Shown: positions 3,443 through 49,808 of the stretch, piece after piece
How positions within the stretch are numbered: the first letter of the stretch is position 1
Layout of the letters: the number at the start of each line of letters is the position of its first letter
DNA from: a virus
IMG/VR virus record: IMGVR_UViG_3300021185_003284
Span: 49,072-113,071 of that record
Strand: one strand, 5' to 3'
DNA: 64,000 nt
Made by a program: the position numbers and the translations under genes
The notes under the pieces: generated by a model
What the model was told of the DNA's origin: nothing
Seen by the model: only the letters and a program-made list of their open reading frames with translations
Database searches by the model: none

Positions 3443-4663
3443 ATGGATTTAGATTTTTATAATGAGCATGGATATCTCCATATCGAAAATGCTATCCCAA
3501 AAGAGTATATAGAAATTGCAAGAGAAAAAGGCATGCCTTTAGTCAAATGGTCTAGAGAAAATGTTAATAAACCTGCACTAGCTGGCCCACCTACATTAAA
3601 TCTACATGTAGGATGTGCTGGAGCATATGAAGGAGAGTTAATGAACCTTTATACTTCTAAAATCTCATATGATTTAGTTACCACTATTTTACAGAAAAAA
3701 GATATATTTTTATTTAATGATCAAATGGTCTATAAGTTTCCAAATGATAACTTTACATTTGCTCCTCATTACGATAATCAATATGGAGCTGAAAATAAGG
3801 ATGGTAAAATGCATACTGTTAATATGAGTTGGGTACTAGATGACTTTACAGATGATAACGGAACATTAGAACTTCAAAGCTTAAAAACAAAAGAGTGGCA
3901 TAGAGTCTATCCTAAAGCAGGAGATATTATAGCCATAAACGGAAACTGTATACATAGATCAGGTCCTAATACTTCTGATAAACCTAGAGGACTATATGCT
4001 TGTGTGTATTCTGAAGGACAGATAAACTTACAAAATTACTATAAGGAACCTTTTCTACTTAAAGATACAGATACACAGCACCTTCATCATCTATCTAATG
4101 GCATACCAATACAACAATTTAGAGGATTTGAGGAGTACTTTACTAAATTTTTAGAACTAAATAAATTTGATAGGATATTAGAATTAGGAACTTCAAGAGG
4201 AGGTTTAACATATTTCCTCTCTACTATATTTGACGGACCTATTATTACAGTTGATAACGTAACTAAGCTAATAGACCAAAAAGTATATAGTGTAGCACGA
4301 GTAATGGAAGCAGATCATATGAGCTTTCAAACTCAGCAGTTCTTACATAAAGAGTTTATTTCTAAAGAAGGAAAGACATTAGTACTTTGTGATGGAGGTG
4401 ACAAACCTTCTATCTTTAATGCTTATGCTACTTTAATAAAGGAGGGAGACTTTATAGGAGTGCATGATTTCTTTGTATCAAAGGAAGAATATGAAAAACA
4501 AAACGCTTGGAACTGGATGGAATGCTCAGAAGATCAAATAAAAAACGTGATACGTGAGTATAAACTAGAAAAGACTGATACTTATTTACTCAACATCGTT
4601 TGGGGTATGTATAAGAAGAACTCTAAGAAAGTAGATCTACCAACTTATTCATCTATAATATGA
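3443..4663 (+). CDS. Fusion of PhyH-like 2OG-Fe(II) dioxygenase and class I SAM methyltransferase
   Basis: N-half: HYD...H(RS)...R facial-triad pattern. C-half: ILELGTSRGG SAM motif, LCDGG, GVHD. Confidence 0.75.
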   Translation: MDLDFYNEHGYLHIENAIPKEYIEIAREKGMPLVKWSRENVNKPALAGPPTLNLHVGCAGAYEGELMNLYTSKISYDLVTTILQKKDIFLFNDQMVYKFPNDNFTFAPHYDNQYGAENKDGKMHTVNMSWVLDDFTDDNGTLELQSLKTKEWHRVYPKAGDIIAINGNCIHRSGPNTSDKPRGLYACVYSEGQINLQNYYKEPFLLKDTDTQHLHHLSNGIPIQQFRGFEEYFTKFLELNKFDRILELGTSRGGLTYFLSTIFDGPIITVDNVTKLIDQKVYSVARVMEADHMSFQTQQFLHKEFISKEGKTLVLCDGGDKPSIFNAYATLIKEGDFIGVHDFFVSKEEYEKQNAWNWMECSEDQIKNVIREYKLEKTDTYLLNIVWGMYKKNSKKVDLPTYSSII

Positions 4664-8444: not shown

Positions 8445-9290
8445 ATGTCAGATATTATGTTCAATTTTAAGCAAGATGAAACTTACATGAGTAAGGAAGA
8501 TCTTAGGAATGAATGCCCTTTAGCATTCGCTAGTGCACCAACTAACCCTAATGTTAGTGGTAAATACTTATTCGTTAATACAGAAACTATTGTAGACGAT
8601 TTAGATAAGTTAGGATGGAAACCAGTTCAAGCTGCTCAAAGAAAAGCTAGAGGTAATGCAGGTACTATTTTTAGTAAGCATATGGTTGCATTCCAGAATC
8701 CAGATATTAAGATTAAAGGTGAAGGCGGAGATGATGCTTGGCCTAGAATTATTATGACGAACAGTCATGATGGTATGCAAGCGTTTAAGTTTAGCGTTGG
8801 TATATTTAGAATGGTTTGTTCTAATGGTTTAGTAGTTGCAGATGAGCAATTTAGTGACTTTAAGATTAAGCATAAAGGTTATACCTTTGGTGAACTTAGA
8901 GAAGTAGTTAATCAAGCTGTAGCTGATCTTCCTAATAGAGTCCAAGTATTAAACGATATGAAAGATAGAGTTCTTACTCAAGAAGAAAAGAATAAATTAG
9001 CTTTAGATGCTATGTTAATTAGAGCTAATATTACTCCTGGTTCTGAAAAAGCAAAAGAGTTTAATTATGATGCTGAGACTATTGAAGATATTCTTGATCC
9101 TAAAAGAGATGAAGATAAAGGAGATGATCTTTGGAGAGTATTTAATGTAGTACAAGAAAAGATTACTCAAGGAGATTTCCATGCTGCATTAACAGGTGCA
9201 AAAGTAAGAAAAGTTCGTAAAATTAAATCTTTCGAAAAGGACTTGAAAGTTAATAAGGAACTATTTAAATTAGCGACTAATTTAATTTAG
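8445..9290 (+). CDS. DUF932/DUF945-family protein
   Basis: KHMVAF, NSHDG, G-FRMVCSNGL, H, DLWRVFNVVQE motifs. Confidence 0.85.
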   Translation: MSDIMFNFKQDETYMSKEDLRNECPLAFASAPTNPNVSGKYLFVNTETIVDDLDKLGWKPVQAAQRKARGNAGTIFSKHMVAFQNPDIKIKGEGGDDAWPRIIMTNSHDGMQAFKFSVGIFRMVCSNGLVVADEQFSDFKIKHKGYTFGELREVVNQAVADLPNRVQVLNDMKDRVLTQEEKNKLALDAMLIRANITPGSEKAKEFNYDAETIEDILDPKRDEDKGDDLWRVFNVVQEKITQGDFHAALTGAKVRKVRKIKSFEKDLKVNKELFKLATNLI

Positions 9291-9343: not shown

Positions 9344-10069
9344 ATGAATGTAGCAGTATTAGTAGAAATTATAAAAGAGACGGACAAAAATTGGCGATTC
9401 ATATTTGAGTCGCCTTTGTACGATAAGATAGATTTCGTCTCTGGCCAGCTTGTTCAATTAGCGATCCAGGATCCTATTGAGGCAGGCTACTACCATAAAA
9501 GAAATTATTCAGTAGCATCTTGGCCAGATGGTACAAACAGGTTTGAACTTATCATAACCTACATACCTGGAGGTTTATTCTCTGAGTTTTTATTTAAGGA
9601 AGCAAAGATAGGAGATGAATTTCTCTACAGAGGTCCATTAGGAGTATTTACTTTACCGAACTTACAGAAACTAGATAGAGATATATACTTTGTGAGTACT
9701 GGTTCCGGAATAAGTCCTTTTAGATCCATAATGGGTTGGATAGGAGAAAATCCTGATAAGATAGAAACTAAGAAGCTTAAATTATTCTTTGGTACACGAA
9801 CTGAAAAGGAAATACTTTATAGAGATGAAATGGAGGCTTTAGAAAAGAAGCTTCCTAACTTTGAATTCATTCCAACATTATCTCAAGAACAATGGGACGG
9901 TAAAACAGGATATGTCCATGACCACTACCTTAAACTAATAGATGAGATGGATGAAAAACCTTTAGTATACTATTGTGGATGGGATAAAATGATTAGAGAA
10001 GGAAGAAGCCATCTAGATGCTAGAGGATTTGAAATGACTAAAGATATCAGAGTAGAAATATTTGGATAA
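9344..10069 (+). CDS. FAD/NAD(P)H oxidoreductase, ferredoxin-NADP reductase family (no 2Fe-2S domain)
   Basis: RNYS FAD motif, GGLFS, GPLG, TGSGISP, YYCG, terminal EIFG. Confidence 0.88.
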   Translation: MNVAVLVEIIKETDKNWRFIFESPLYDKIDFVSGQLVQLAIQDPIEAGYYHKRNYSVASWPDGTNRFELIITYIPGGLFSEFLFKEAKIGDEFLYRGPLGVFTLPNLQKLDRDIYFVSTGSGISPFRSIMGWIGENPDKIETKKLKLFFGTRTEKEILYRDEMEALEKKLPNFEFIPTLSQEQWDGKTGYVHDHYLKLIDEMDEKPLVYYCGWDKMIREGRSHLDARGFEMTKDIRVEIFG

Positions 10070-10515
10070 TGGAAGGACCAATGGCAGCTTTAGACCTTCT
10101 TAACGAAAAGGCATTTCAGCATATAAAAAATAACGTCGTCACTCAATTAACTTGTAGAAAAATTGGTCTTACGTTTTGTGCTTTGACCGATATTTATAAA
10201 GGACAAGAGGTATTCCTACCTTGGGATGGACCAACAAGGGAATACAGCTTTATTGTAGATAGGATCGAAGAACTCCACGGAAACGTATTTGGTACCCTAC
10301 TACGATACTTTGACAATCATTCTTATTTAGAAAAGGGTGTTGTTAATTTTAAATTAGTGCACGGTGTTAACTTTATAGTGGCACAACCTGAATGTATTTT
10401 ATCCCCCGATGGAGAGGGTGGCAACTTAGAGTCAGGAACTATAAAGGCTAGATGGGATATTATTGCTACAACAGAGCTTTCACTCTATGAAGCAAGAAGT
10501 AGACCACTTTTGTAA
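10069..10515 (+). CDS. Divergent SET-domain-like protein
   Basis: ALTDIYKGQEV and IKARWDIIATTELSLYE resemble the SET motifs A-RDI-GEE and EL-DY; the NH motif is not clear. Confidence 0.45.
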   Translation: MEGPMAALDLLNEKAFQHIKNNVVTQLTCRKIGLTFCALTDIYKGQEVFLPWDGPTREYSFIVDRIEELHGNVFGTLLRYFDNHSYLEKGVVNFKLVHGVNFIVAQPECILSPDGEGGNLESGTIKARWDIIATTELSLYEARSRPLL

Positions 10516-10549: not shown

Positions 10550-10575
10550 ATAAACACTAATAAAACCCAAAAAGA

Positions 10576-12810
10576 ATGAAAGGTACATTATTTTCAGCTG
10601 ACTTTGTAAAAGACGGAAACGGCGATAGTAAACTAATCGAAATCAACACTGATACAGCTTGTATCGCAGGATTAGCTTCTAACATCGACTTTACTGATCT
10701 TTACTCAGTTTTAGCTACAAACACAATCACAGACCTACAGGTAATCTATAAAGAATTTCAAGAGCCAATCTTAGATAGACTTAAAGCTCAGAAACCTGAG
10801 GGAGTAACAATCACCGAACATAAGGAAATACACTCTTCTATATATCCAACTTCTATAGCAGACGATGCTACTAAGTTTATATTGAGATTAGCTTATGACG
10901 AAAATGCATTATTAGATGCCATTTACGCTAAAAATGATGCAAACTTACATGGTTTGTTCGGAGCACAAGGACCAGCATCAGCATCACTTGTAGTATCTGC
11001 TAAACAGTCAGCAGATTCCTCTAACCTTAATTACGTATTAAACGGACCAACAGAACCAGATTTTGCTGTTAAGCCTAAAGTTCCTACTAAATCAGGAATT
11101 GACTTTTATAAGCTAGGAGGTTCAACAGGATCTATTGAAGACAGGATAAACGAATTTACTGCTTCTATTGATTCAGGCGTTAATGTAATTACAAACTACG
11201 TTAGTGATGCAACAGATACAGCTAAGTCAGTAAGATCATATCAAATCGTATATGGAGCTGATTTAGATATCACTTGGTTAGGTGCTTATACTCTTGATGC
11301 TTTATTTACTCATACTTTAAGTTTAGTATACGATGATAATAAAGTAGTTAATAAATTAGCTAACAAGCATTACTATGAATTTGCTACTAATGACATCTCA
11401 GATAACGAAGGTGTTTATTATGAGGCTAAAATTAAGAAAGAAGATGGTAACTACGATGTAGCGGAAGATGCAGTAATAGGTACATTATATGATTCTTATT
11501 ATGTAAGTGGATCGCCGATGACTGATAACAGTCTTATATTAGACTCATGGTCTTTTGCTGGAGATACTCTACCTTCTGGTTCATATAGTACATCATCATC
11601 TTTACAGTCAAACACTTCAGTCACAATGGGAGATAATTCATTAAGAAGAATTACTCTTGATGACGGACAAACAGTACTATTAGGAGGAGCTAACAGAGCA
11701 TTAGTACATGATAATGTTAATAATGAAACTTCTTACTTAAGAGCTAGAGATATTAAAGCTGGATTCAAATTATTTGATGAAAACGGAGCTAGTAAAGGAG
11801 TTACTGCACATGATATAATCATATTAGATAACGACTCAGATTCTAAAATTATAGAATTAGGAGTAGAGGATGTAGATAACTATGTTGTAAGTGGGTCTAA
11901 TACTATTATTCACAACGCACCTTGTTTCATTGCCGGAACTAAAGTTAATATGGAAGACGGTTCAATGAAGAATATTGAAGACGTTAAAGAAGGAGATCAA
12001 GTATGTTGTTGGGACTTTGAAATAAATGGTTTCTCAAATGAGAAAGTATTAATAACTACTGAAACAGAAGATCAGAAAGTAGTACAGATAACATTTAAAT
12101 GCTTCGGTAATGATCTAGATATATATGCAACTCCAGACCATCCATTCTTTGTAGAAGGTGGTAAAGGTTGGGCATGTCAAGATCCAGAATTACTTAAAGA
12201 AAAGACTGGAATGGAAGCTGCTCTATTAGATGCAGGAGATAGTATACTGACAGGTAAGGAAGGAGAAACTTCTATTGTTACAGGAATTACTTCTTGTGAC
12301 TGGACAGCGACAGTATATAACTTAGATAACGTATTCAAATATAATAACTACTTTATATATGGAATGTTAGTACACAACAGATTTATCTTTTCTTGTCATA
12401 CTTATGATAGTAAAGTAGAAATGGCTGATGGTACTCACAAAGCTATAGGAGAAGTAAAAGTTGGAGATAAAGTAAAATCTATCAAAGACGGAATCGTAAC
12501 AGAAGGTACTGTTACTGATCATTTAATTCACGTTACTAACGATGTAATGAGAACAATCAAAACTACTAATGGATATACAGAAATCAATCACCCAATCTTA
12601 GTTGACGGTGAGTGGGTAGCTGCTAAAGAATTAGGAGAAGTAGAAAGTGTATTTGTTGATAACTTCTATAACTTAGAAATTGACGGAAACATTTCTGAAA
12701 GTGATCATAACTATATCGTTGACGGAATGGTATCATCAGGATTAGGAGACAGCAAAGAGCTTAATGCTAAATATCAGAGACAACCTAAACAATTAACTAA
12801 ACACTTATAA
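10576..12810 (+). CDS. Circularly permuted ATP-grasp-like domain fused to three tandem Hint domains
   Basis: N-terminal ADF...KLIEINTDT and AVKP. Hint units: G279-HN447; C450(FIAGT)-TPDH-HN601; C607(HTYDSKV)-INHP-YNLE-NYIVDG. Confidence 0.75.
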   Translation: MKGTLFSADFVKDGNGDSKLIEINTDTACIAGLASNIDFTDLYSVLATNTITDLQVIYKEFQEPILDRLKAQKPEGVTITEHKEIHSSIYPTSIADDATKFILRLAYDENALLDAIYAKNDANLHGLFGAQGPASASLVVSAKQSADSSNLNYVLNGPTEPDFAVKPKVPTKSGIDFYKLGGSTGSIEDRINEFTASIDSGVNVITNYVSDATDTAKSVRSYQIVYGADLDITWLGAYTLDALFTHTLSLVYDDNKVVNKLANKHYYEFATNDISDNEGVYYEAKIKKEDGNYDVAEDAVIGTLYDSYYVSGSPMTDNSLILDSWSFAGDTLPSGSYSTSSSLQSNTSVTMGDNSLRRITLDDGQTVLLGGANRALVHDNVNNETSYLRARDIKAGFKLFDENGASKGVTAHDIIILDNDSDSKIIELGVEDVDNYVVSGSNTIIHNAPCFIAGTKVNMEDGSMKNIEDVKEGDQVCCWDFEINGFSNEKVLITTETEDQKVVQITFKCFGNDLDIYATPDHPFFVEGGKGWACQDPELLKEKTGMEAALLDAGDSILTGKEGETSIVTGITSCDWTATVYNLDNVFKYNNYFIYGMLVHNRFIFSCHTYDSKVEMADGTHKAIGEVKVGDKVKSIKDGIVTEGTVTDHLIHVTNDVMRTIKTTNGYTEINHPILVDGEWVAAKELGEVESVFVDNFYNLEIDGNISESDHNYIVDGMVSSGLGDSKELNAKYQRQPKQLTKHL

Positions 12811-12812
12811 TC

Positions 12813-12950
12813 ATGCCAGAAATATATAAAACAATCTCACTAGCAGATTACGGAAACAGAAATGCAACGGCTTTGACTGCTGACGAACAAACAGATGTAA
12901 GAGCAACTGTTACTAAGTTCATCGAACTTTTCAAAGCAGAACATTTATAA
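12813..12950 (+). CDS. 45-aa peptide (MPEIYKTISLADYGNRNATALTADEQTDVRATVTKFIELFKAEHL), not in the ORF track
   Basis: ATG 2 nt after the upstream stop; fills the gap to the next gene. Confidence 0.7.
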   Translation: MPEIYKTISLADYGNRNATALTADEQTDVRATVTKFIELFKAEHL

Positions 12951-12959
12951 GATAGTTAA

Positions 12960-13502
12960 ATGATCTTAGAGCAAAAGGTTTTATTGACTCCTAAGGAGTG
13001 TCAAGATGTAATAGCATCATGTAAAGACATTTGGTACCCATCATTATTGGGTAAGGAGGAATATAAACCTAAGCTTAGAAATAGTTTCGTACATATTAAG
13101 AAACCAAGAAAAGGAGAGGCCTTGTATGAATACATACAAAGAGGCCTTTCCCTTGTTTCTGAAGAGCTCGTATCTGAAGAACCTTTACTTATTCAGATAT
13201 TAAAATACAAAAAAGGAGGATTTATCTACAAGCATAAAGATGACGTTACCTCTTCATTAAATGGTTTAGTTCAAGCACGTTACTACTTTATTATTCTTCT
13301 TAATGATGATTTTGAAGGAGGAGATTTTCTAGCATATGATAATAAAGATACTGTGTATAAATTAGATAGGAAACAAGGTAACATACTTATAGGAGATCCG
13401 ACTATGTTTCATGAAGTTACTAAAGTTACAAAAGGTACAAGATATAGCCTAATATGTTTTATTACACCAGACCTTCTTAAACCTAATAATACTATAATTT
13501 AA
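12960..13502 (+). CDS. 2OG-Fe(II) oxygenase, prolyl-4-hydroxylase-like
   Basis: HKD...LNDDFEGG...HEV..V.KG.RYS. Confidence 0.88.
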   Translation: MILEQKVLLTPKECQDVIASCKDIWYPSLLGKEEYKPKLRNSFVHIKKPRKGEALYEYIQRGLSLVSEELVSEEPLLIQILKYKKGGFIYKHKDDVTSSLNGLVQARYYFIILLNDDFEGGDFLAYDNKDTVYKLDRKQGNILIGDPTMFHEVTKVTKGTRYSLICFITPDLLKPNNTII

Positions 13503-14050
13503 TGAAACCTAATTTTAAACATTATGGTTCTATAAATGTAGCTCCTTTTCTTTCTGCTTTGGAAGCTATCAAACCTCAAGACTGGAGTAAATATACCTAC
13601 CGTCAAGACTTATTTCCTATGCATAACAAAACTCAAACTATACCAGTACTATATGATACAGACTACGAAATAGGAGTAAGTAAAAAATCATCTTTTTACA
13701 AAATATTTGAAAGTTCAATAGAGCATGCAACTAAAAAGATATCTGAGTTAACCAAATCTAACTGCTCTATAATAAGATTTATTATTACTAACCTTCCAGC
13801 TAATACAGTAGTCGATGAGCATAGAGATAAAGCAAATAGTTTTAAACTTTATAATAGAGTACATATACCTTTAATTACTAATGATAAAGTTCTTTTCACA
13901 GTAGGAGAAGAAACAATCAATATGCCTGTAGGAGAAATGTATGAAATAAACAACAATGATCAACTTCATGGAGTAGTAAATAGCAGTAACCAAGACAGGC
14001 TACATATTATTTTAGATTGGTATGATTATACTAAAAGAACAGCCATATGA
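13502..14050 (+). CDS. Aspartyl/asparaginyl beta-hydroxylase-like 2OG oxygenase
   Basis: HRD, RVHIPL, EINN...HGVVN...RLHIILD. Confidence 0.85.
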   Translation: MKPNFKHYGSINVAPFLSALEAIKPQDWSKYTYRQDLFPMHNKTQTIPVLYDTDYEIGVSKKSSFYKIFESSIEHATKKISELTKSNCSIIRFIITNLPANTVVDEHRDKANSFKLYNRVHIPLITNDKVLFTVGEETINMPVGEMYEINNNDQLHGVVNSSNQDRLHIILDWYDYTKRTAI

Positions 14051-17672: not shown

Positions 17673-17837
17673 ATGATTGAAATAATAAAACATACATTAG
17701 GAATTTGTGGAGAGCATTGGCATCCAAACGTCATAACCTTGTTGGCCGGCTCTCCCATCTTTCTTACTGCTGTACATTACATTAAATGTAAATGTGGTGG
17801 ATGGTTTAAACATAAAGATAATTGTGAGAATCAATAG
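17673..17837 (+). CDS. Small Cys/His-rich membrane peptide (54 aa), not in the ORF track
   Basis: MIEIIKHTLGICGEHWHPN... runs ATG 17673 to TAG 17837. Confidence 0.55.
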   Translation: MIEIIKHTLGICGEHWHPNVITLLAGSPIFLTAVHYIKCKCGGWFKHKDNCENQ

Positions 17838-19125
17838 ATACATAATACTCGGACTTCTTATAATAGGATGTCAGAAGGAACCTATGGAACCTATTGCTCC
17901 AGTACAACCCTGTAACTGTGAGTTAGTAGTAGATGTACAGATACCTTCTGCTACTGATTGTGAAACAGATTACCTTCATTGGGATATTCCTTTTGTTGAT
18001 ACTGCTAAGAAGTTAAATGTTAACTTACCTAGATTTGGACAATTTACTTTATGGTCTGCATTTGGTAATTTTAATAATAACGATACGTCTGATTATGTAA
18101 TCGTAACAGAAGGAGGAACTAATATAGAAAATCCTCCTAGGGGTGAAGTAGTTATAGTAGTAGATGATGTTATAGTAATAGCAATACCAAGTCCTCAACT
18201 AAAAACTAGGAAGGTAGTTACAGAAGATCTAAATCAAGATGGTATAGATGATATAATTCTATTTGGAACAGGACCTGATACTGCACAATCATCAGGAGAT
18301 ATTACTACTGTGATCTATATGTATGCTTCTGGTAGCTATAGGGTACAGGAAATAGGAAGCATCAGCGGATATTACCATACAGGAGCGTATGGAGTAACAA
18401 ATGGAAATGCAGAGATTTTAGAGATTAACTCTCAAGCTTTTACTAATGGTAGTAACGGGTATGTTAACCTTTTACAATCTAGCGGAACTAGTGAAGTATG
18501 GACTAATAGTGATTCTAACATAACTACTCATCATGTAGCTCGAACTTTTCATAGTGAATTATATGATTTCGATAAAGATGGAATTCTAGATTTAATACTA
18601 GGTGGGCACGAATGGGAAGAAGATTGGATGGCTACTTCATTACGTAAAGTAGTATGGCAGACTCATATACTTAGAGGATTAGGTCCAGGACAGTTCGATG
18701 TAGATAACCCAATTATACTCCCTCAGATATTAAACTGGGGTGTAATTACAGACTTTGATATCTACGATATTGATCGAGATGGTAATGTAGAAATTATTAT
18801 TACTAGAACTACTGGAAGAGATGGAGTACAATTTGAATTAGTAGATAATGAATACTACGATGGTATTAAAGTTCAAATACTTAAAGGAGAAGGATTTAAT
18901 TGGTATCAAGACCAGGCATTAGAGTCTCCTAACATAATAGGCTTAGGGACATTTATATGGCCTCATAAGAGTACGATCTATGATGTAAACGGAGATTGTT
19001 TACTAGATATAATTCCGGAAAGCGATAAGCTTAACGCAGCTAGCTTTGTAGACTTTAACTCTGTGAGAGGTATATACTATGAACAGCAGGATAACGGACA
19101 GTTTAACTTAAAATATAAGAATTAA
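17824..19125 (+). CDS. Lipoprotein with FG-GAP/VCBS-like Ca-binding repeats
   Basis: Lipobox LIIGC after GTG 17824; repeats DLNQDGIDD, DFDKDGILD, DIDRDGNVE, DVNGDCLLD. Confidence 0.75.
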   Translation: MRINRYIILGLLIIGCQKEPMEPIAPVQPCNCELVVDVQIPSATDCETDYLHWDIPFVDTAKKLNVNLPRFGQFTLWSAFGNFNNNDTSDYVIVTEGGTNIENPPRGEVVIVVDDVIVIAIPSPQLKTRKVVTEDLNQDGIDDIILFGTGPDTAQSSGDITTVIYMYASGSYRVQEIGSISGYYHTGAYGVTNGNAEILEINSQAFTNGSNGYVNLLQSSGTSEVWTNSDSNITTHHVARTFHSELYDFDKDGILDLILGGHEWEEDWMATSLRKVVWQTHILRGLGPGQFDVDNPIILPQILNWGVITDFDIYDIDRDGNVEIIITRTTGRDGVQFELVDNEYYDGIKVQILKGEGFNWYQDQALESPNIIGLGTFIWPHKSTIYDVNGDCLLDIIPESDKLNAASFVDFNSVRGIYYEQQDNGQFNLKYKN

Positions 19126-30485: not shown

Positions 30486-31623
30486 ATCATTCGGAAACGC
30501 TTCGGCAGGTAGCGGTGGAGGAAACGGAACATCATCAAATAGCTCTATATTTGCTAGAGTAGTAGATGTTATTCAAGATTCATTTCATCCTGAATATGAA
30601 GATAAAGGATCTTCAAACGCACTGTACGGACTATTTTACAGAGAACTACACGTACCGACTCTAGAGGATGGAGAACAACCTCTTAAGTTCGCCTACTGTG
30701 GTATATCCGAATTTAAAAAGATACCCTTAAAGAATGAGATAGTTAGAGTAGAAAAACTTCCCTCTGACGAACGTACACCACAGGATCCAACTAAAACTAA
30801 GATGTACTGGACAGCTATAGTAGGAGTATGGAACTCTCCTCATCACAATGCTGCTCCAGACACACTACAGTCAGGTGAAGGATCATCTGTAGATCTAGGT
30901 GAATACTTTGTTGAAAAAGAGAACGTACCACCTATTCAAGCCTTTCCAGGAGACGTATTAATGGAAAGTAGATTTGGGTCTACACTTAGACTAGGAGGTA
31001 CTAAATACGATACTAATATATTTACAGACGACAGTAATGACGGAATTCCATATGTTATACTTTCAAACGGACAAAAAGAACCAGAGGACGGAGTAACACC
31101 TGTTATAGAAGATATCAATGATGATCCAAACTCACTATATATGGGAGCAGATCATAAGTTTGAACTTACTCAAGCAAACGATAAACGTGACGCATGGGAT
31201 TCCGAACCAGATAAAGCAGATGCATTTAAAGGTAATCAAGTAATTCTTAATGGAGGGAGACTGTTCTTCAATGCTAAAGAAGAAGGAATATTTTTATCTG
31301 CAGTTGAAGGTATAGGTTTAAACGGAAAGGTAGTAGGAATAGATGGAGAAGAGTACGTAGCACTAGACGCTACAAAGGTATACTTAGGTACAGATGCATT
31401 TAAAGAGATAGAGCCTGTGCTCTTAGGTCAAACTTCGATAGACTGGTTAGATGATTTTATATCTCAATTCGAAACCCTTTGTAAGAGTATAGCTACATCA
31501 CCACCTGCACCTCCTGCATTCGTAGCAAAGCAGATAGCTACAGCAAATTCAATAGTACCGGTAATACCGCAGTTAAAGAGTTTATTAAAACAACTATTAT
31601 CTAAAAAAGTATACACAGAATAA
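30478..31623 (+). CDS. Baseplate hub/spike protein (gp5-like, no lysozyme domain evident)
   Basis: N-terminal OB-like region, GDVLMESRFG.TLRLG, beta-repeat C-terminus, EPVLLG; sits upstream of gp25/gp6 genes. Confidence 0.55.
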   Translation: MFKSFGNASAGSGGGNGTSSNSSIFARVVDVIQDSFHPEYEDKGSSNALYGLFYRELHVPTLEDGEQPLKFAYCGISEFKKIPLKNEIVRVEKLPSDERTPQDPTKTKMYWTAIVGVWNSPHHNAAPDTLQSGEGSSVDLGEYFVEKENVPPIQAFPGDVLMESRFGSTLRLGGTKYDTNIFTDDSNDGIPYVILSNGQKEPEDGVTPVIEDINDDPNSLYMGADHKFELTQANDKRDAWDSEPDKADAFKGNQVILNGGRLFFNAKEEGIFLSAVEGIGLNGKVVGIDGEEYVALDATKVYLGTDAFKEIEPVLLGQTSIDWLDDFISQFETLCKSIATSPPAPPAFVAKQIATANSIVPVIPQLKSLLKQLLSKKVYTE

Positions 31624-32879
31624 TGCCATACGTTAATATACCCGATTCCGGACTTCATGGTACCATCGCTAAAATAGTTGGCAAGATGATGGGTGGGGTA
31701 ATGTCAAAGGTAATACAGAACTCTACCAACATAACTAATTCACTCAATAGAAAAGGATGCCCGACAGGGCCGGAGACAGATAGGTTAAGAAAGAAACTAA
31801 ATCAAAATCAAAAATCTCTCCAACAAGTACAGAGCCGTATATCAAAATTTAAAGCTATACCCGGTAAATTAAAACCACCATTAGGGGGACTAAAAGCAGC
31901 TTTAAAAATTATACTTACTTTACCAATTCCACAAGGTATAGGTATTCCACCAGGACCTGCTGGGGGTCTTATTATTGGTTTACCAATAAACATTACAACT
32001 AAGTATGCAGATACTATGCATCTACTAAAGGAGTTTATTAAGCAAATTGACGAAATTATAGTAGCTATAGAAGCAGTATTAGATACTCCATCAGCATCAT
32101 TAAAGAGTTTACAACGTAACTTAGGATCAGCAGACACAGCCGTTAAATGCTGTGAAATAGAAGCAGCACTACAAAAACAACTCGACAATGGAGATTTAAC
32201 TCAAACAGATATAGACGATCTTGGACTTTCAGATGATGACGGAGACTTAATCTTCTCCTCTCTAGGACCTAAGCTTCTTGCTTCTGTATCCAATAAAGGA
32301 TTAACTAACAGTAGTAAAGATAGTTTAAAATCTAAAAGTGATTTAAACAAAAAAGGAAAATGGTTACTTAAGAACCCAATATCTTCAAACGCTGACGGTG
32401 GGGATATTATATATCTTGTGAATGACCAAGTTAAGTATAATAATGTAGAGTACATATGCATTAAAGGGCATACCTCTTCATTAGAAAATATACCCCCTAC
32501 AGCTGAATTCTGGAGTACATTAGATTCTGCTGTAAATAAAGGGGTAAGCGACCTTCTATCTGGAATTAGAAAGATAGAGGATAGCAATATTAATTCTAAT
32601 ACCAAAGACCTTATTAAAGGCCTATTAGATAATTTTGCTAATATAGGGGAAGGTAAAGCAGGTATTAATTCTAAGTTCTTTCATACAGGCCCTGATGGTA
32701 TTGTATATGAATTAAGAATAAAGAATGATCCACAAGCACCACCTATTGCCCCTAGACGATACGCAGTAGCAATAAATCCTGACGGAGCAGAGATGTTTGT
32801 CGGTGATAAATCCTTTGCTTCTGACGTAGAAGTATTATTAAATGAAATAAAATTTAGAATAGACAACCAACTTTCATAA
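31623..32879 (+). CDS. Virion-associated protein with an inserted CBM5/12-like module
   Basis: Y.VND.VKYNN.EY.C..GHTS......P....W. Confidence 0.55.
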   Translation: MPYVNIPDSGLHGTIAKIVGKMMGGVMSKVIQNSTNITNSLNRKGCPTGPETDRLRKKLNQNQKSLQQVQSRISKFKAIPGKLKPPLGGLKAALKIILTLPIPQGIGIPPGPAGGLIIGLPINITTKYADTMHLLKEFIKQIDEIIVAIEAVLDTPSASLKSLQRNLGSADTAVKCCEIEAALQKQLDNGDLTQTDIDDLGLSDDDGDLIFSSLGPKLLASVSNKGLTNSSKDSLKSKSDLNKKGKWLLKNPISSNADGGDIIYLVNDQVKYNNVEYICIKGHTSSLENIPPTAEFWSTLDSAVNKGVSDLLSGIRKIEDSNINSNTKDLIKGLLDNFANIGEGKAGINSKFFHTGPDGIVYELRIKNDPQAPPIAPRRYAVAINPDGAEMFVGDKSFASDVEVLLNEIKFRIDNQLS

Positions 32880-48884: not shown

Positions 48885-49808
48885 ATGGATTATACTTTCC
48901 TTTTAGGATCCATTGAAAACATCTTAGGCAAAAGTCATAAGAGAGCAAGAGAGAATCATGCTTTCCATTGCCCATTTTGTAATCATAGGAAACCAAAGCT
49001 TGAGATTAATATGGCAACTACCGAAGAAGGTAAGAACTTCTGGGAATGTTGGGTATGTCAAACTCGAGGTCAAACTATTCGTTCTCTACTTAAACAACTA
49101 AAAACACCTAGAGAACAAGCACAGGAGATATTAAAATATCTTCCAAAAGGAACTACAATAGAGTATAAACAACTATCTATAGTAGAGCTTCCTAAAGAGT
49201 ACCAACCTCTTTATAATGCTTCTCCAACATCGGTTGTAGCTAACATAGTAAGAAAATATTTATATGACAGAGGGCTTAACGACAATGATTTTATTAAATA
49301 TAGCATTGGATACTGCACAACTGGAGAATATGGAGGAAGAGTTATTATACCAAGTTATTCTTCATCCAACCAACTCAATTTCTTTATTGCAAGAACTTAC
49401 GACGGAAATTACTTTAAGTACAAAAATCCAGAAGCTTCTAAAGATATAGTATTTTTTGAGAACTTAATTAATTGGAATGCTCCTATTATTCTTTGTGAAG
49501 GAGTATTTGATGCAATAGCTATACGTAGAAATGCTGTTCCGCTACTGGGAAAGAGTGTTTCTAATTCACTTTATAAAAAGATTATAACAACTACTACAAA
49601 CGATATCTATATAGCATTAGACACAGATGCTAGAGATAGAGCTCTCTCAATAGCTGAGAAGTTTTTAAACGAAGGTAAAAGAGTGTTCATAGCAGACCTA
49701 CCAGATAAAGATCCCTCAGAGATGGGTTTCACTACTTTTACAAAATTCATACAGCAAGCTAAGGAATTGGATCTATCAAGCCTTATGCTTCATAAACTAA
49801 ATCTATGA
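48885..49808 (+). CDS. DNA primase (Zn finger plus TOPRIM)
   Basis: CPFC...CWVC, YL..RG, R.IIP, EG.FD, LD.D, KDP. Confidence 0.9.
   Translation: MDYTFLLGSIENILGKSHKRARENHAFHCPFCNHRKPKLEINMATTEEGKNFWECWVCQTRGQTIRSLLKQLKTPREQAQEILKYLPKGTTIEYKQLSIVELPKEYQPLYNASPTSVVANIVRKYLYDRGLNDNDFIKYSIGYCTTGEYGGRVIIPSYSSSNQLNFFIARTYDGNYFKYKNPEASKDIVFFENLINWNAPIILCEGVFDAIAIRRNAVPLLGKSVSNSLYKKIITTTTNDIYIALDTDARDRALSIAEKFLNEGKRVFIADLPDKDPSEMGFTTFTKFIQQAKELDLSSLMLHKLNL

Follow-up and report, generated by a model that had tools for sequence, protein, structure and literature searches.

The 64,000 nucleotides (nt) analysed here, hereafter the window, are the 3' 64 kilobases (kb) of a 113-kb linear virus record in IMG/VR (IMGVR_UViG_3300021185_003284, positions 49,072 to 113,071), with a completeness estimate of 68%. 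Our subject is a pair of adjacent genes on its + strand. The larger one is a single open reading frame (ORF) at 10576-12810, encoding a protein of 744 amino acids (aa) in which an ATP-grasp-like domain is followed by three Hint domains (H1, H2 and H3). The smaller one, an ORF of 45 aa at 12813-12950, begins 2 nt past the stop of the large gene and had been missed in a preliminary description of this DNA made from the letters alone; all strings quoted there from the large protein were found at the residues assigned to them. The features of the locus are listed below, with window coordinates, strand and, in brackets, the evidence used.

10576..12810, + strand: whole large gene, 744 aa, in the order ATP-grasp-like domain, H1, Ala-Pro, H2, Arg-Phe-Ile-Phe-Ser, H3 and tail (ORF translation, homologues, model)
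10576..11409, + strand: N-terminal domain (N domain), aa 1-278, circularly permuted ATP-grasp-like ligase core (Foldseek, VIA-align, hhalign)
10597..10656, + strand: aa 8-27, ADFVKDGNGDSKLIEINTDT, putative Mg2+-binding hairpin with D9, E22 and N24 (invariance, match to YgiC 99-121)
11065..11076, + strand: aa 164-167, AVKP, with the putative ATP-phosphate-binding Lys166 (aligned to YgiC VVKP)
11410..11916, + strand: H1, aa 279-447, degenerate Hint that has Gly279 where Cys1 would stand and a His446-Asn447 end (profile match to H2)
11917..11922, + strand: spacer 1, Ala448-Pro449 (homologue junctions)
11923..12378, + strand: H2, aa 450-601, complete Hint of the bacterial intein-like (BIL) type, followed by Arg602 (Pfam PT-HINT, structure matches)
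12379..12393, + strand: spacer 2, Arg-Phe-Ile-Phe-Ser, aa 602-606 (homologue junctions)
12394..12741, + strand: H3, aa 607-722, Vint/Hog-like Hint (Pfam Vint, structure 8r2c)
12742..12807, + strand: C-terminal tail, aa 723-744, LGDSKELNAKYQRQPKQLTKHL (conservation, helix in the model)
12813..12950, + strand: partner gene of 45 aa, starting 2 nt past the large-gene stop (ORF list, related loci)

The ATP-grasp-like domain

The key motifs of the large protein are HN-AP-C at residues 446-450, TPDH at 519-522, HN-RFIFS-C at 600-607 and NHP at 671-673, and the third Hint closes with ...GMVSSG. The AlphaFold2 model of the full-length protein has a mean predicted local distance difference test (pLDDT) value of 83.5, that of aa 1-278 by itself one of 76. 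With the isolated model, the top 37 Foldseek matches were all circularly permuted ATP-grasp ligases (E-value from 8e-6, query TM-score (TMq) of about 0.42), comprising the human, yeast, plant and trypanosome glutathione synthetases, E. coli YjfC, YgiC and glutathionylspermidine synthetase (GspS), trypanothione synthetase and Mfla_0391 and Mfla_0392-like proteins. VIA-align, which is independent of Foldseek and was run against 48,161 representative chains, filled its top 11 positions with the same permuted clade (Z-score 8.1-6.0), the 194-228 aligned residues running colinearly with model residues 1-275. Non-permuted ATP-grasps (RimK, LysX/ArgX, MdnC, Ddl, ITPK1, TTLL11) aligned in that search only from model residue ~50, as did 7mgv, MdnC (5ig9) and 7mgv scoring Z 3.9-4.6, and such a late start is the expected signature of permutation.

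Since the VIA-align Z-scores were moderate, support was also sought in sequence. The local mode of hhalign aligned the N-domain profile colinearly with E. coli YgiC (sequence from the E. coli K-12 record), pairing aa 3-261 with YgiC 95-368 (E-value = 6.8e-5), while the global mode returned a junk alignment. The local alignment pairs LFS-ADFVKDGNGDSKLIEINTDT with the YgiC hairpin at 99-121, D...E-x-N-x-D-T being common to both, and PDFAVKP with EKYVVKP of YgiC. From knowledge of the superfamily we take the ADFVKDGNGDSKLIEINTDT segment to be the Mg-binding hairpin and AVKP to be the ATP-binding lysine strand of ATP-grasp enzymes. A match of the ADFVKDGNGDSKLIEINTDT segment to Ddl 265-291 was not significant, and a profile search of the PDB sequences with the N domain gave no significant match. 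A feature search of the ESM Atlas returned clusters of circularly permuted ATP-grasp, GSP_synth and GSH-synthase proteins (score 0.85), which was used as a lead and not as evidence. Fold and motifs thus agree with the GspS-like, circularly permuted N-terminus claimed in the preliminary description, and structure prediction of aa 1-278, which it had proposed as a check, produced the fold of the permuted branch.

Conservation was read from an alignment of 95 homologues with identities down to 34%. Invariant residues of the ligase domain are M1-K2-G3, F6, S7, D9, F10, E22, N24, T25-D26-T27 and K59, together with R104, D108, D114, P161, D162, K179, R220 and E268. Among the Hints the same holds for N447, C450, T519, H522, N601, C607, H652 and H672-P673, while H446 and K166 are each conserved in at least 90% of the sequences. 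Judged from this alignment, the catalytic ends of all three Hints are under strong purifying selection; they are not lost at random, in agreement with the preliminary description.

These invariant positions bear on the question of whether the large gene is still functional. The N domain could be an ATP-grasp relic that binds without catalysis, trailed by decaying selfish Hints, and a Pfam score below threshold, the lack of a pre-ATP-grasp domain and the low-confidence loops at 110-147 in the isolated AlphaFold2 model all suit such a view. However, the Mg-hairpin and the Lys/Arg residues are invariant across homologues as distant as ~30% identity, and decaying Hints would not keep every nucleophile and Asn invariant, as these do. 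We consider a relic very unlikely, and on fold prediction and motifs the N domain is probably an active, compact and divergent member of the permuted ATP-grasp branch.

The Hint domains and their exchange between genes

H2 and H3 are both recognised by Pfam, with PT-HINT at 65.8 bits (cut-off 27.7) on aa 450-601 and Vint at 60.6 bits (cut-off 27) on aa 606-724; the Hint and Intein_splicing models also fall on these two ranges. Within H1 there is a weak PT-HINT match at aa 384-442. Comparison of sub-alignments by hhalign connected H1 with H2 all the way between the first strand and the closing His-Asn (probability 97%, E-value = 3e-11, 135 columns) and H2 with H3 (probability 98.8%). Because of this profile match to H2, and because a control comparison of the N domain with H2 returned nothing, H1 (G279-N447) is a real, degenerate Hint. 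It carries G279 at the Cys1 position, lacks the TxxH block, retains the terminal His-Asn and contains a conserved insert of ~25 residues (SGSP.TD..WS..G..LPSGSY.TSS). The closest structures to H2 are BIL2 of the Tetrahymena BUBL1 locus (6tmm/6y75, target TM-score (TMt) 0.81-0.85) and the C. thermocellum BIL (2lwy), followed by mini-inteins. Cys450, Thr519-x-x-His522 and His600-Asn601, with the non-nucleophilic Arg602 next in line, form the pattern of a type-A BIL. H3 matches the Tetrahymena Vint domain 8r2c and has Cys607 and the block-B His672, with no terminal His-Asn, ending in ...SSGLGD. Since the terminal Asn is absent, only N-terminal cleavage or transfer would be possible for H3.

The arrangement claimed earlier, with intact catalysis at the C-terminal end in H1, at both ends in H2 and at the N-terminal end in H3, is therefore borne out by sequence and profiles, including a first Hint that has lost Cys1 and the block-B His and kept its His-Asn ending. 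The same is true of the +1 residues, which are Ala448 after H1 and Arg602 after H2 in place of the Cys, Ser or Thr of canonical class-1 inteins. A Cys directly after H1 occurs only in 25 homologues that have no spacer 1. As to an insertion site of the canonical intein kind, Hint-free tails (His-Asn plus 1-12 residues) exist, and the 'extein' past the last unit is often a single Lys. BIL domains are known to yield mainly N- and C-cleaved products (PMC7664689). BIL2 makes a Lys isopeptide bond without ATP, its activity is metal-regulated, and in the BUBL precedent a unit is flanked by a C-cleaving BIL and a thioester-forming BIL (PMC8616854).

The tail behind H3 is conserved as well. S721-G722-L723-G724 are invariant in the 95 sequences, D725, L729, N730, R735 and Q736 are kept in at least 90%, and AlphaFold2 predicts a helix at aa 727-733. 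An H3-type Hint with an LGDN..LN..QRQ tail also ends unrelated phage proteins of 1419, 890 and 291 aa (L044:2161-6420, L045, L047:27-2699, L049:60-935), one of which shows weak PKD/fn3 matches and adjoins a crAss muzzle-like gene. This suggests that H3 and its tail form a self-cleaving C-terminal module that can be carried from one phage protein to another, the proteins being probably those of the virion. A KHL ending common to the H3 tail and the small protein was taken as coincidence, as it is not conserved among H3 tails.

The number of Hints differs widely within the family. Domain hidden Markov models (HMMs) sorted 263 family proteins into the following architectures.

N-H1-H2-H3: 118 of 263
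N-H1-H2: 43 of 263
N-H1-H2-H2: 29 of 263
N-H1 only: 20 of 263
N-H1-H3: 3 of 263
N-H1-H2-H2-H2: 3 of 263
N-H1-H2-H2-H3: 1 of 263
Remaining 46: N-domain-only fragments, 38; N-H2, 5; odd forms with two N-domain matches, 3

Every complete member starts with the N domain at residue 1 and continues with H1, after which 0 to 3 Cys1-bearing Hints follow. Complete genes without any such Hint lie on viral contigs of 139-170 kb; thioester chemistry thus falls outside the constant core. These minimal forms end in His-Asn plus 1-12 residues, and forms with H2 as the last unit end in ...VHNK-stop in at least 39 cases.

The spacers are no more constant. Spacer 1 is AP in 114 homologues, absent in 25 (where Cys comes straight after His-Asn), SP in 7, A in 5 and GP in 4, others being longer. 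Spacer 2 measures 1-14 aa, apart from two outliers of 30 and 33 aa; it reads R in 15 cases, RFIFA in 14, RFIFS in 6, K in 6 and WK in 5. In 21 junctions it consists of one basic residue alone, R or K, and hardly any version lacks an R or K at its start or further in. The Hint units themselves have a history of their own. Two units of the same protein share a median identity of only 26% (52% at most), so the arrays are not recent tandem duplications. Identities of 74-89% occur between certain units of hosts whose N-H1 cores share 20-45% identity, units at different array positions included; unit 2 of P0111 and unit 1 of P0234, for instance, are 77% identical against 29% for their cores. Conversely, cores that are 60-69% identical carry differing arrays. 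By these comparisons the arrays are assembled from exchangeable units, swapped between distant host genes and between array positions.

The preliminary description had proposed to check whether Hint number and spacer sequence vary among homologues while the pattern of catalytic ends is conserved, and both were seen. The reading advanced there fares worse. According to it, C-terminal cleavage by H1 and the thioesters of H2 and H3 would free AP and RFIFS as activated peptides for the fused ligase, making the protein a self-processing precursor for a ribosomally synthesised and post-translationally modified peptide (RiPP) or for a protein tag. The catalytic ends facing the spacers are indeed conserved, and the C-cleaving and thioester-forming pair of the BUBL locus is a real precedent. 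Yet a product that is absent in 25 homologues at the first position, can shrink to one residue at the second and is conserved in neither sequence nor length is hard to reconcile with such a role; the number of spacers runs from 0 to 3, units and whole arrays are exchanged between lineages, and an ATP-grasp itself activates carboxylates, which makes a thioester donor redundant. We regard this origin of AP and RFIFS as scarcely credible. Since their length and sequence vary, the Hint number varies and units are exchanged, AP and RFIFS look like variable junction linkers and not like products.

A regulatory role of the array has also to be weighed here. The Hints might inhibit the ligase until stepwise autoproteolysis down to Asn447 turns it on, after infection or on a redox or metal cue. 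The invariant Asn of H1 lies directly at the array boundary, BIL2 is itself responsive to metal, and the Hint junctions are predicted to be disordered (AlphaFold2 pLDDT below 50 at aa 439-449 and 602-605). Against such a timer, minimal forms have only 1-12 residues to remove, and the composition of the arrays seems too labile for a tuned device; it appears improbable to us.

Some distant members deserve separate mention. In these, the ATP-grasp-H1 part and its His-Asn are followed by a Cys-rich tail of 30-60 residues, often Lys-terminated (L051:4001-5500, L052, L054:3368-4870 on a contig labelled GVMAG, and L055; P0238, P0239, P0241 and P0249). Their genes keep the small downstream ORF and are flanked by GDSL-like hydrolase and sulfotransferase-like genes. 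In such members Asn cyclisation might set free a genuine peptide.

The small partner gene, the family and its genomic setting

An ORF of 43-52 aa lies directly downstream of the large gene in 43 of 48 related viral loci, and it also adjoins the large genes of the deepest branches sampled, namely the minimal N-H1 forms and those with Cys-rich tails. The small protein is represented by 129 database clusters, all annotated as hypothetical, and Pfam holds no family for the 45-aa protein. Of 125 sequences compared, 120 retain Tyr5 and Lys6, and 111 have His at the penultimate position. An HMM search found no fused copy of it inside any large protein. Because N-H1 is present in every complete member, N447 is invariant and the small ORF occurs in those 43 loci and in the deepest branches, the constant core consists of the ATP-grasp domain, H1 with its His-Asn, and the 43-52-aa protein. 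The latter is a better candidate than the spacers for the substrate or partner of the ligase.

With the small protein at hand, a self-conjugation resembling that of the BUBL loci can be considered. The Cys1 thioesters of H2 and H3 would activate the C-terminus of the upstream chain, and a lysine amine would attack to form an isopeptide without ATP; this amine might be offered by the small protein (Lys6), by the basic residue that comes after each His-Asn or by some target of host or phage origin, each Hint serving as a single-use charge and the ATP-grasp acting in a separate or preparatory step. Among solved structures, the one nearest to H2 comes from such a locus, Cys1 and the block-B His are invariant in H2 and H3, Lys or Arg nearly always follows His-Asn, and Tyr5-Lys6 of the small protein are nearly invariant. 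It would also explain why most members have at least one complete Hint and a basic residue past each His-Asn. On the other hand, minimal members without a Cys1-bearing Hint keep the small protein, so thioester transfer is not the core function; moreover, there is no cargo domain between the Hints, and the internal +1 residue is most often Arg, which is poorly nucleophilic. Overall we find this route unlikely, while granting it a genuine chance.

The family is large and almost confined to viral and marine metagenome DNA. A word-index search gave 825 homologues (E-value of at most 1e-3), mostly of 730-760 aa and aligned over their full length down to 34% identity, and an exhaustive HMMER search with the N domain alone gave 197 clusters at 50% identity. 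Among the N-domain matches listed, almost every complete one starts at residue 1 and none is a classical ATP-grasp. Prokaryotic genomes, one for each of 185,579 species, yielded a single 2.8-kb family contig, binned with a Cyanobium metagenome-assembled genome; the remaining copies that could be placed are on contigs of viruses or in assemblies of uncultured metagenomes. In 50,697 phage records, tblastn recovered only inteins of mycobacteriophages, as matches to H2, and no cultured phage record with the family, and PHROGs has no family for the large protein. A single-sequence scan of viral contigs found nothing, while an alignment-based scan recovered 49 loci. A full-text literature search on Hint with ATP-grasp in phages, tandem BIL and circularly permuted ATP-grasp found no description of this architecture. 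Near-identical copies of the locus of this phage were present in 17 marine or seawater studies, dating from 2017 to 2025.

Nearly all genes of the window lie on the + strand. Downstream of the ligase locus there are family matches to T4-type baseplate wedge and tail-fibre proteins, and around it many small 2-oxoglutarate-Fe(II) (2OG-Fe(II))/PhyH/Asp-Arg-hydroxylase genes, an FAD/NAD oxidoreductase, DUF932 and a RecA-like ATPase, so that the neighbourhood resembles an accessory region in the genome of a large marine myovirus. Oxygenase genes of the 2OG-Fe(II)/PhyH/Asp-Arg-hydroxylase type flank the locus at 3443-4663, 12960-13502 and 13502-14050; the 180-aa one has homologues no more than three genes from the locus in many relatives, the immediate neighbours not being conserved. 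Upstream lie an FAD/NAD-binding oxidoreductase of the ferredoxin-reductase type (9344-10069) and a DUF932 protein (8445-9290), the latter recurring near the ligase locus in 14 related loci. In one clade (L013) a 555-aa carbamoyltransferase is encoded two genes upstream of the ligase gene (L013:3079-4746) and a 145-aa SET-domain protein immediately downstream (L013:8495-8932). Further along the window, a 443-aa protein with FG-GAP-like repeats (17794-19125) and a 418-aa protein with a weak CBM_5_12 match (31623-32879) may be adhesin or fibre-like.

Two candidates for additional components were discarded. A conserved cluster of tailoring enzymes was considered, as small 2OG-Fe(II) oxygenase genes are often found no more than three genes away, but the adjoining genes differ between lineages (carbamoyltransferase, SET-domain, GDSL-like, sulfotransferase-like), and we treat the flanking tailoring-type genes as a variable accessory region of marine myoviruses and not as an operon. 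The upstream 148-aa ORF (10069-10515), a possible missing N-terminal part of a split ATP-grasp, was rejected because it has no Pfam match and occurs in only 2 of 48 related loci, once downstream. As for expression, a 2409-nt contig from a marine metatranscriptome (run X15) spans 10568-12976, exactly the large gene and the small ORF, and contigs from three further RNA libraries also cover the ligase locus. The X15 contig is compatible with a two-gene transcript, a weak hint at best, since contigs do not show transcript ends and RNA libraries may hold DNA.

Proposed mechanism and comparison with known systems

ATP-grasp chemistry, via an acyl-phosphate, and Hint chemistry, via a thioester, are the two classic routes to an activated peptide carboxylate. 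Enzymes such as GspS, YgiC and glutathione synthetase convert a carboxylate, in most cases the C-terminus of a peptide, to an acyl-phosphate and then join it to an amine. Drawing on the folds, motifs, conservation, variable architecture, unit exchange and gene linkage described above, we infer the ligase activity, its substrate and each cleavage event of the following scheme, which is our preferred reading and is offered tentatively, at somewhat less than an even chance. The large protein would be a peptide- or protein-carboxylate ligase that works with the small protein and bears a self-removing, evolutionarily mobile Hint tail.

The two genes would form a virus-only module of a permuted ATP-grasp amide ligase and a small protein, in which the ligase would activate a peptide C-terminal carboxylate as acyl-phosphate and couple it to an amine. 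A ligation involving the small protein is proposed because the relatives use peptide C-termini and because it is the only universally linked partner; it could be the carboxylate donor, the amine acceptor or both in this ATP-dependent reaction. H1 would be a domesticated half-Hint, permanently fused to the ligase: it should be unable to cut at its own N-terminus because Gly replaces Cys1, and able to cut off whatever follows because the His-Asn needed for Asn cyclisation is retained. H2 and H3 would be accessory, exchangeable and self-removing units within a short C-terminal tail, H2 leaving by cutting or splicing along the BIL route, for which no +1 nucleophile is needed, and H3 cutting only at its own N-terminus. 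The mature enzyme would then be ATP-grasp-H1 plus a few extra residues. Minimal tails often read HN-A-K... and H2-bearing ones HN-AP-[H2]-K, a comparison consistent with units lodged in a short tail with a Lys and released from it by cleavage or splicing of the BIL type.

Several observations weigh against this scheme. On the side of the ligase, Pfam GSP_synth (PF03738) scores the N domain at 13.1 bits, below the cut-off of 29.3 (E-value = 0.053); the protein starts at the equivalent of YgiC residue 95 and has no counterpart of the ~90-residue pre-ATP-grasp domain (YgiC residues 1-94); and the VIA-align Z-scores of 6-8 are only moderate. In the small protein, the C-terminal His-x is absent from one subclade, whose members end in KASVE or KNSV. 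On the side of the array, H2 or H3 is present in about 200 of the 263 sampled members and a basic residue follows each His-Asn almost universally, neither of which is expected of dispensable riders; both hint at a function for the Hint array. Finally, the scheme does not explain why H1 should remove a mere 1-12 residues in the minimal forms.

A bolder version of the proposed ligation would make the locus a new ATP-driven phage system for protein tagging or ligation, in which the ATP-grasp activates the His-x-COOH of the 45-aa protein and Hint chemistry exposes or positions the amine. We think it doubtful that the system goes this far. If it does, the amine would be that of the residue freed by Asn447 cyclisation, of the Lys past the last His-Asn or of a host target, and an ATP-grasp would be coupled to half an intein reaction, giving a ubiquitin- or Pup-like tag without E1/E2. 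More generally, if the ligase modifies the small protein, it would represent a new phage-encoded protein-modification system. H1, which keeps only the C-terminal cleavage half, and BIL units that do without a +1 nucleophile could find use in protein engineering, for example in traceless C-terminal cleavage or as tandem self-removing tags. The family is also a natural data set on intein-like units moving between genes without a homing endonuclease.

The component parts are of known kinds; the new features are the fusion, the half-Hint and the small partner. YgiC/YjfC, GspS and the eukaryotic glutathione synthetases show the same permuted order, with the Mg-hairpin first and the V-K-P lysine later; the phage domain, in contrast, has only 278 aa and begins exactly at the hairpin with an invariant MKGT, and its fusion to Hints and its 45-aa partner have no counterpart in those enzymes. 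YgiC and YjfC are presented as peptide-spermidine ligases, or peptidylpolyamine synthetases, in the account given by a citing paper (Pederick et al., 2023, cited in PMC12568646). An ATP-grasp beside a protein or peptide substrate of ~50 aa is found in LysX/LysW, RimK/S6 and the graspetide pair MdnC/MdnA, which are weaker structural matches (Z-score 3.9-5.0); these ligases are non-permuted and RimK-like, unlike the phage domain, and the phage small protein has neither the acidic C-terminus nor the zinc ribbon of LysW; no graspetide core motif was recognised in it. H2 shares Cys1, TxxH, His-Asn and a non-nucleophilic next residue with the type-A BIL (2lwy) and with BUBL1 BIL2. However, BILs of the BUBL loci flank ubiquitin-like cargo, whereas the phage Hints stand 0-14 residues apart without cargo, rare longer outliers aside, and the host protein here is a phage ligase in place of a secreted bacterial protein or a polyubiquitin locus. 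H3, for its part, has in common with the Hedgehog/Hog/Vint domains a terminal position, Cys1 and block-B His, and the lack of a final Asn, but it occurs in phage proteins and carries a 22-aa tail where those domains have a sterol-recognition or vWA context.

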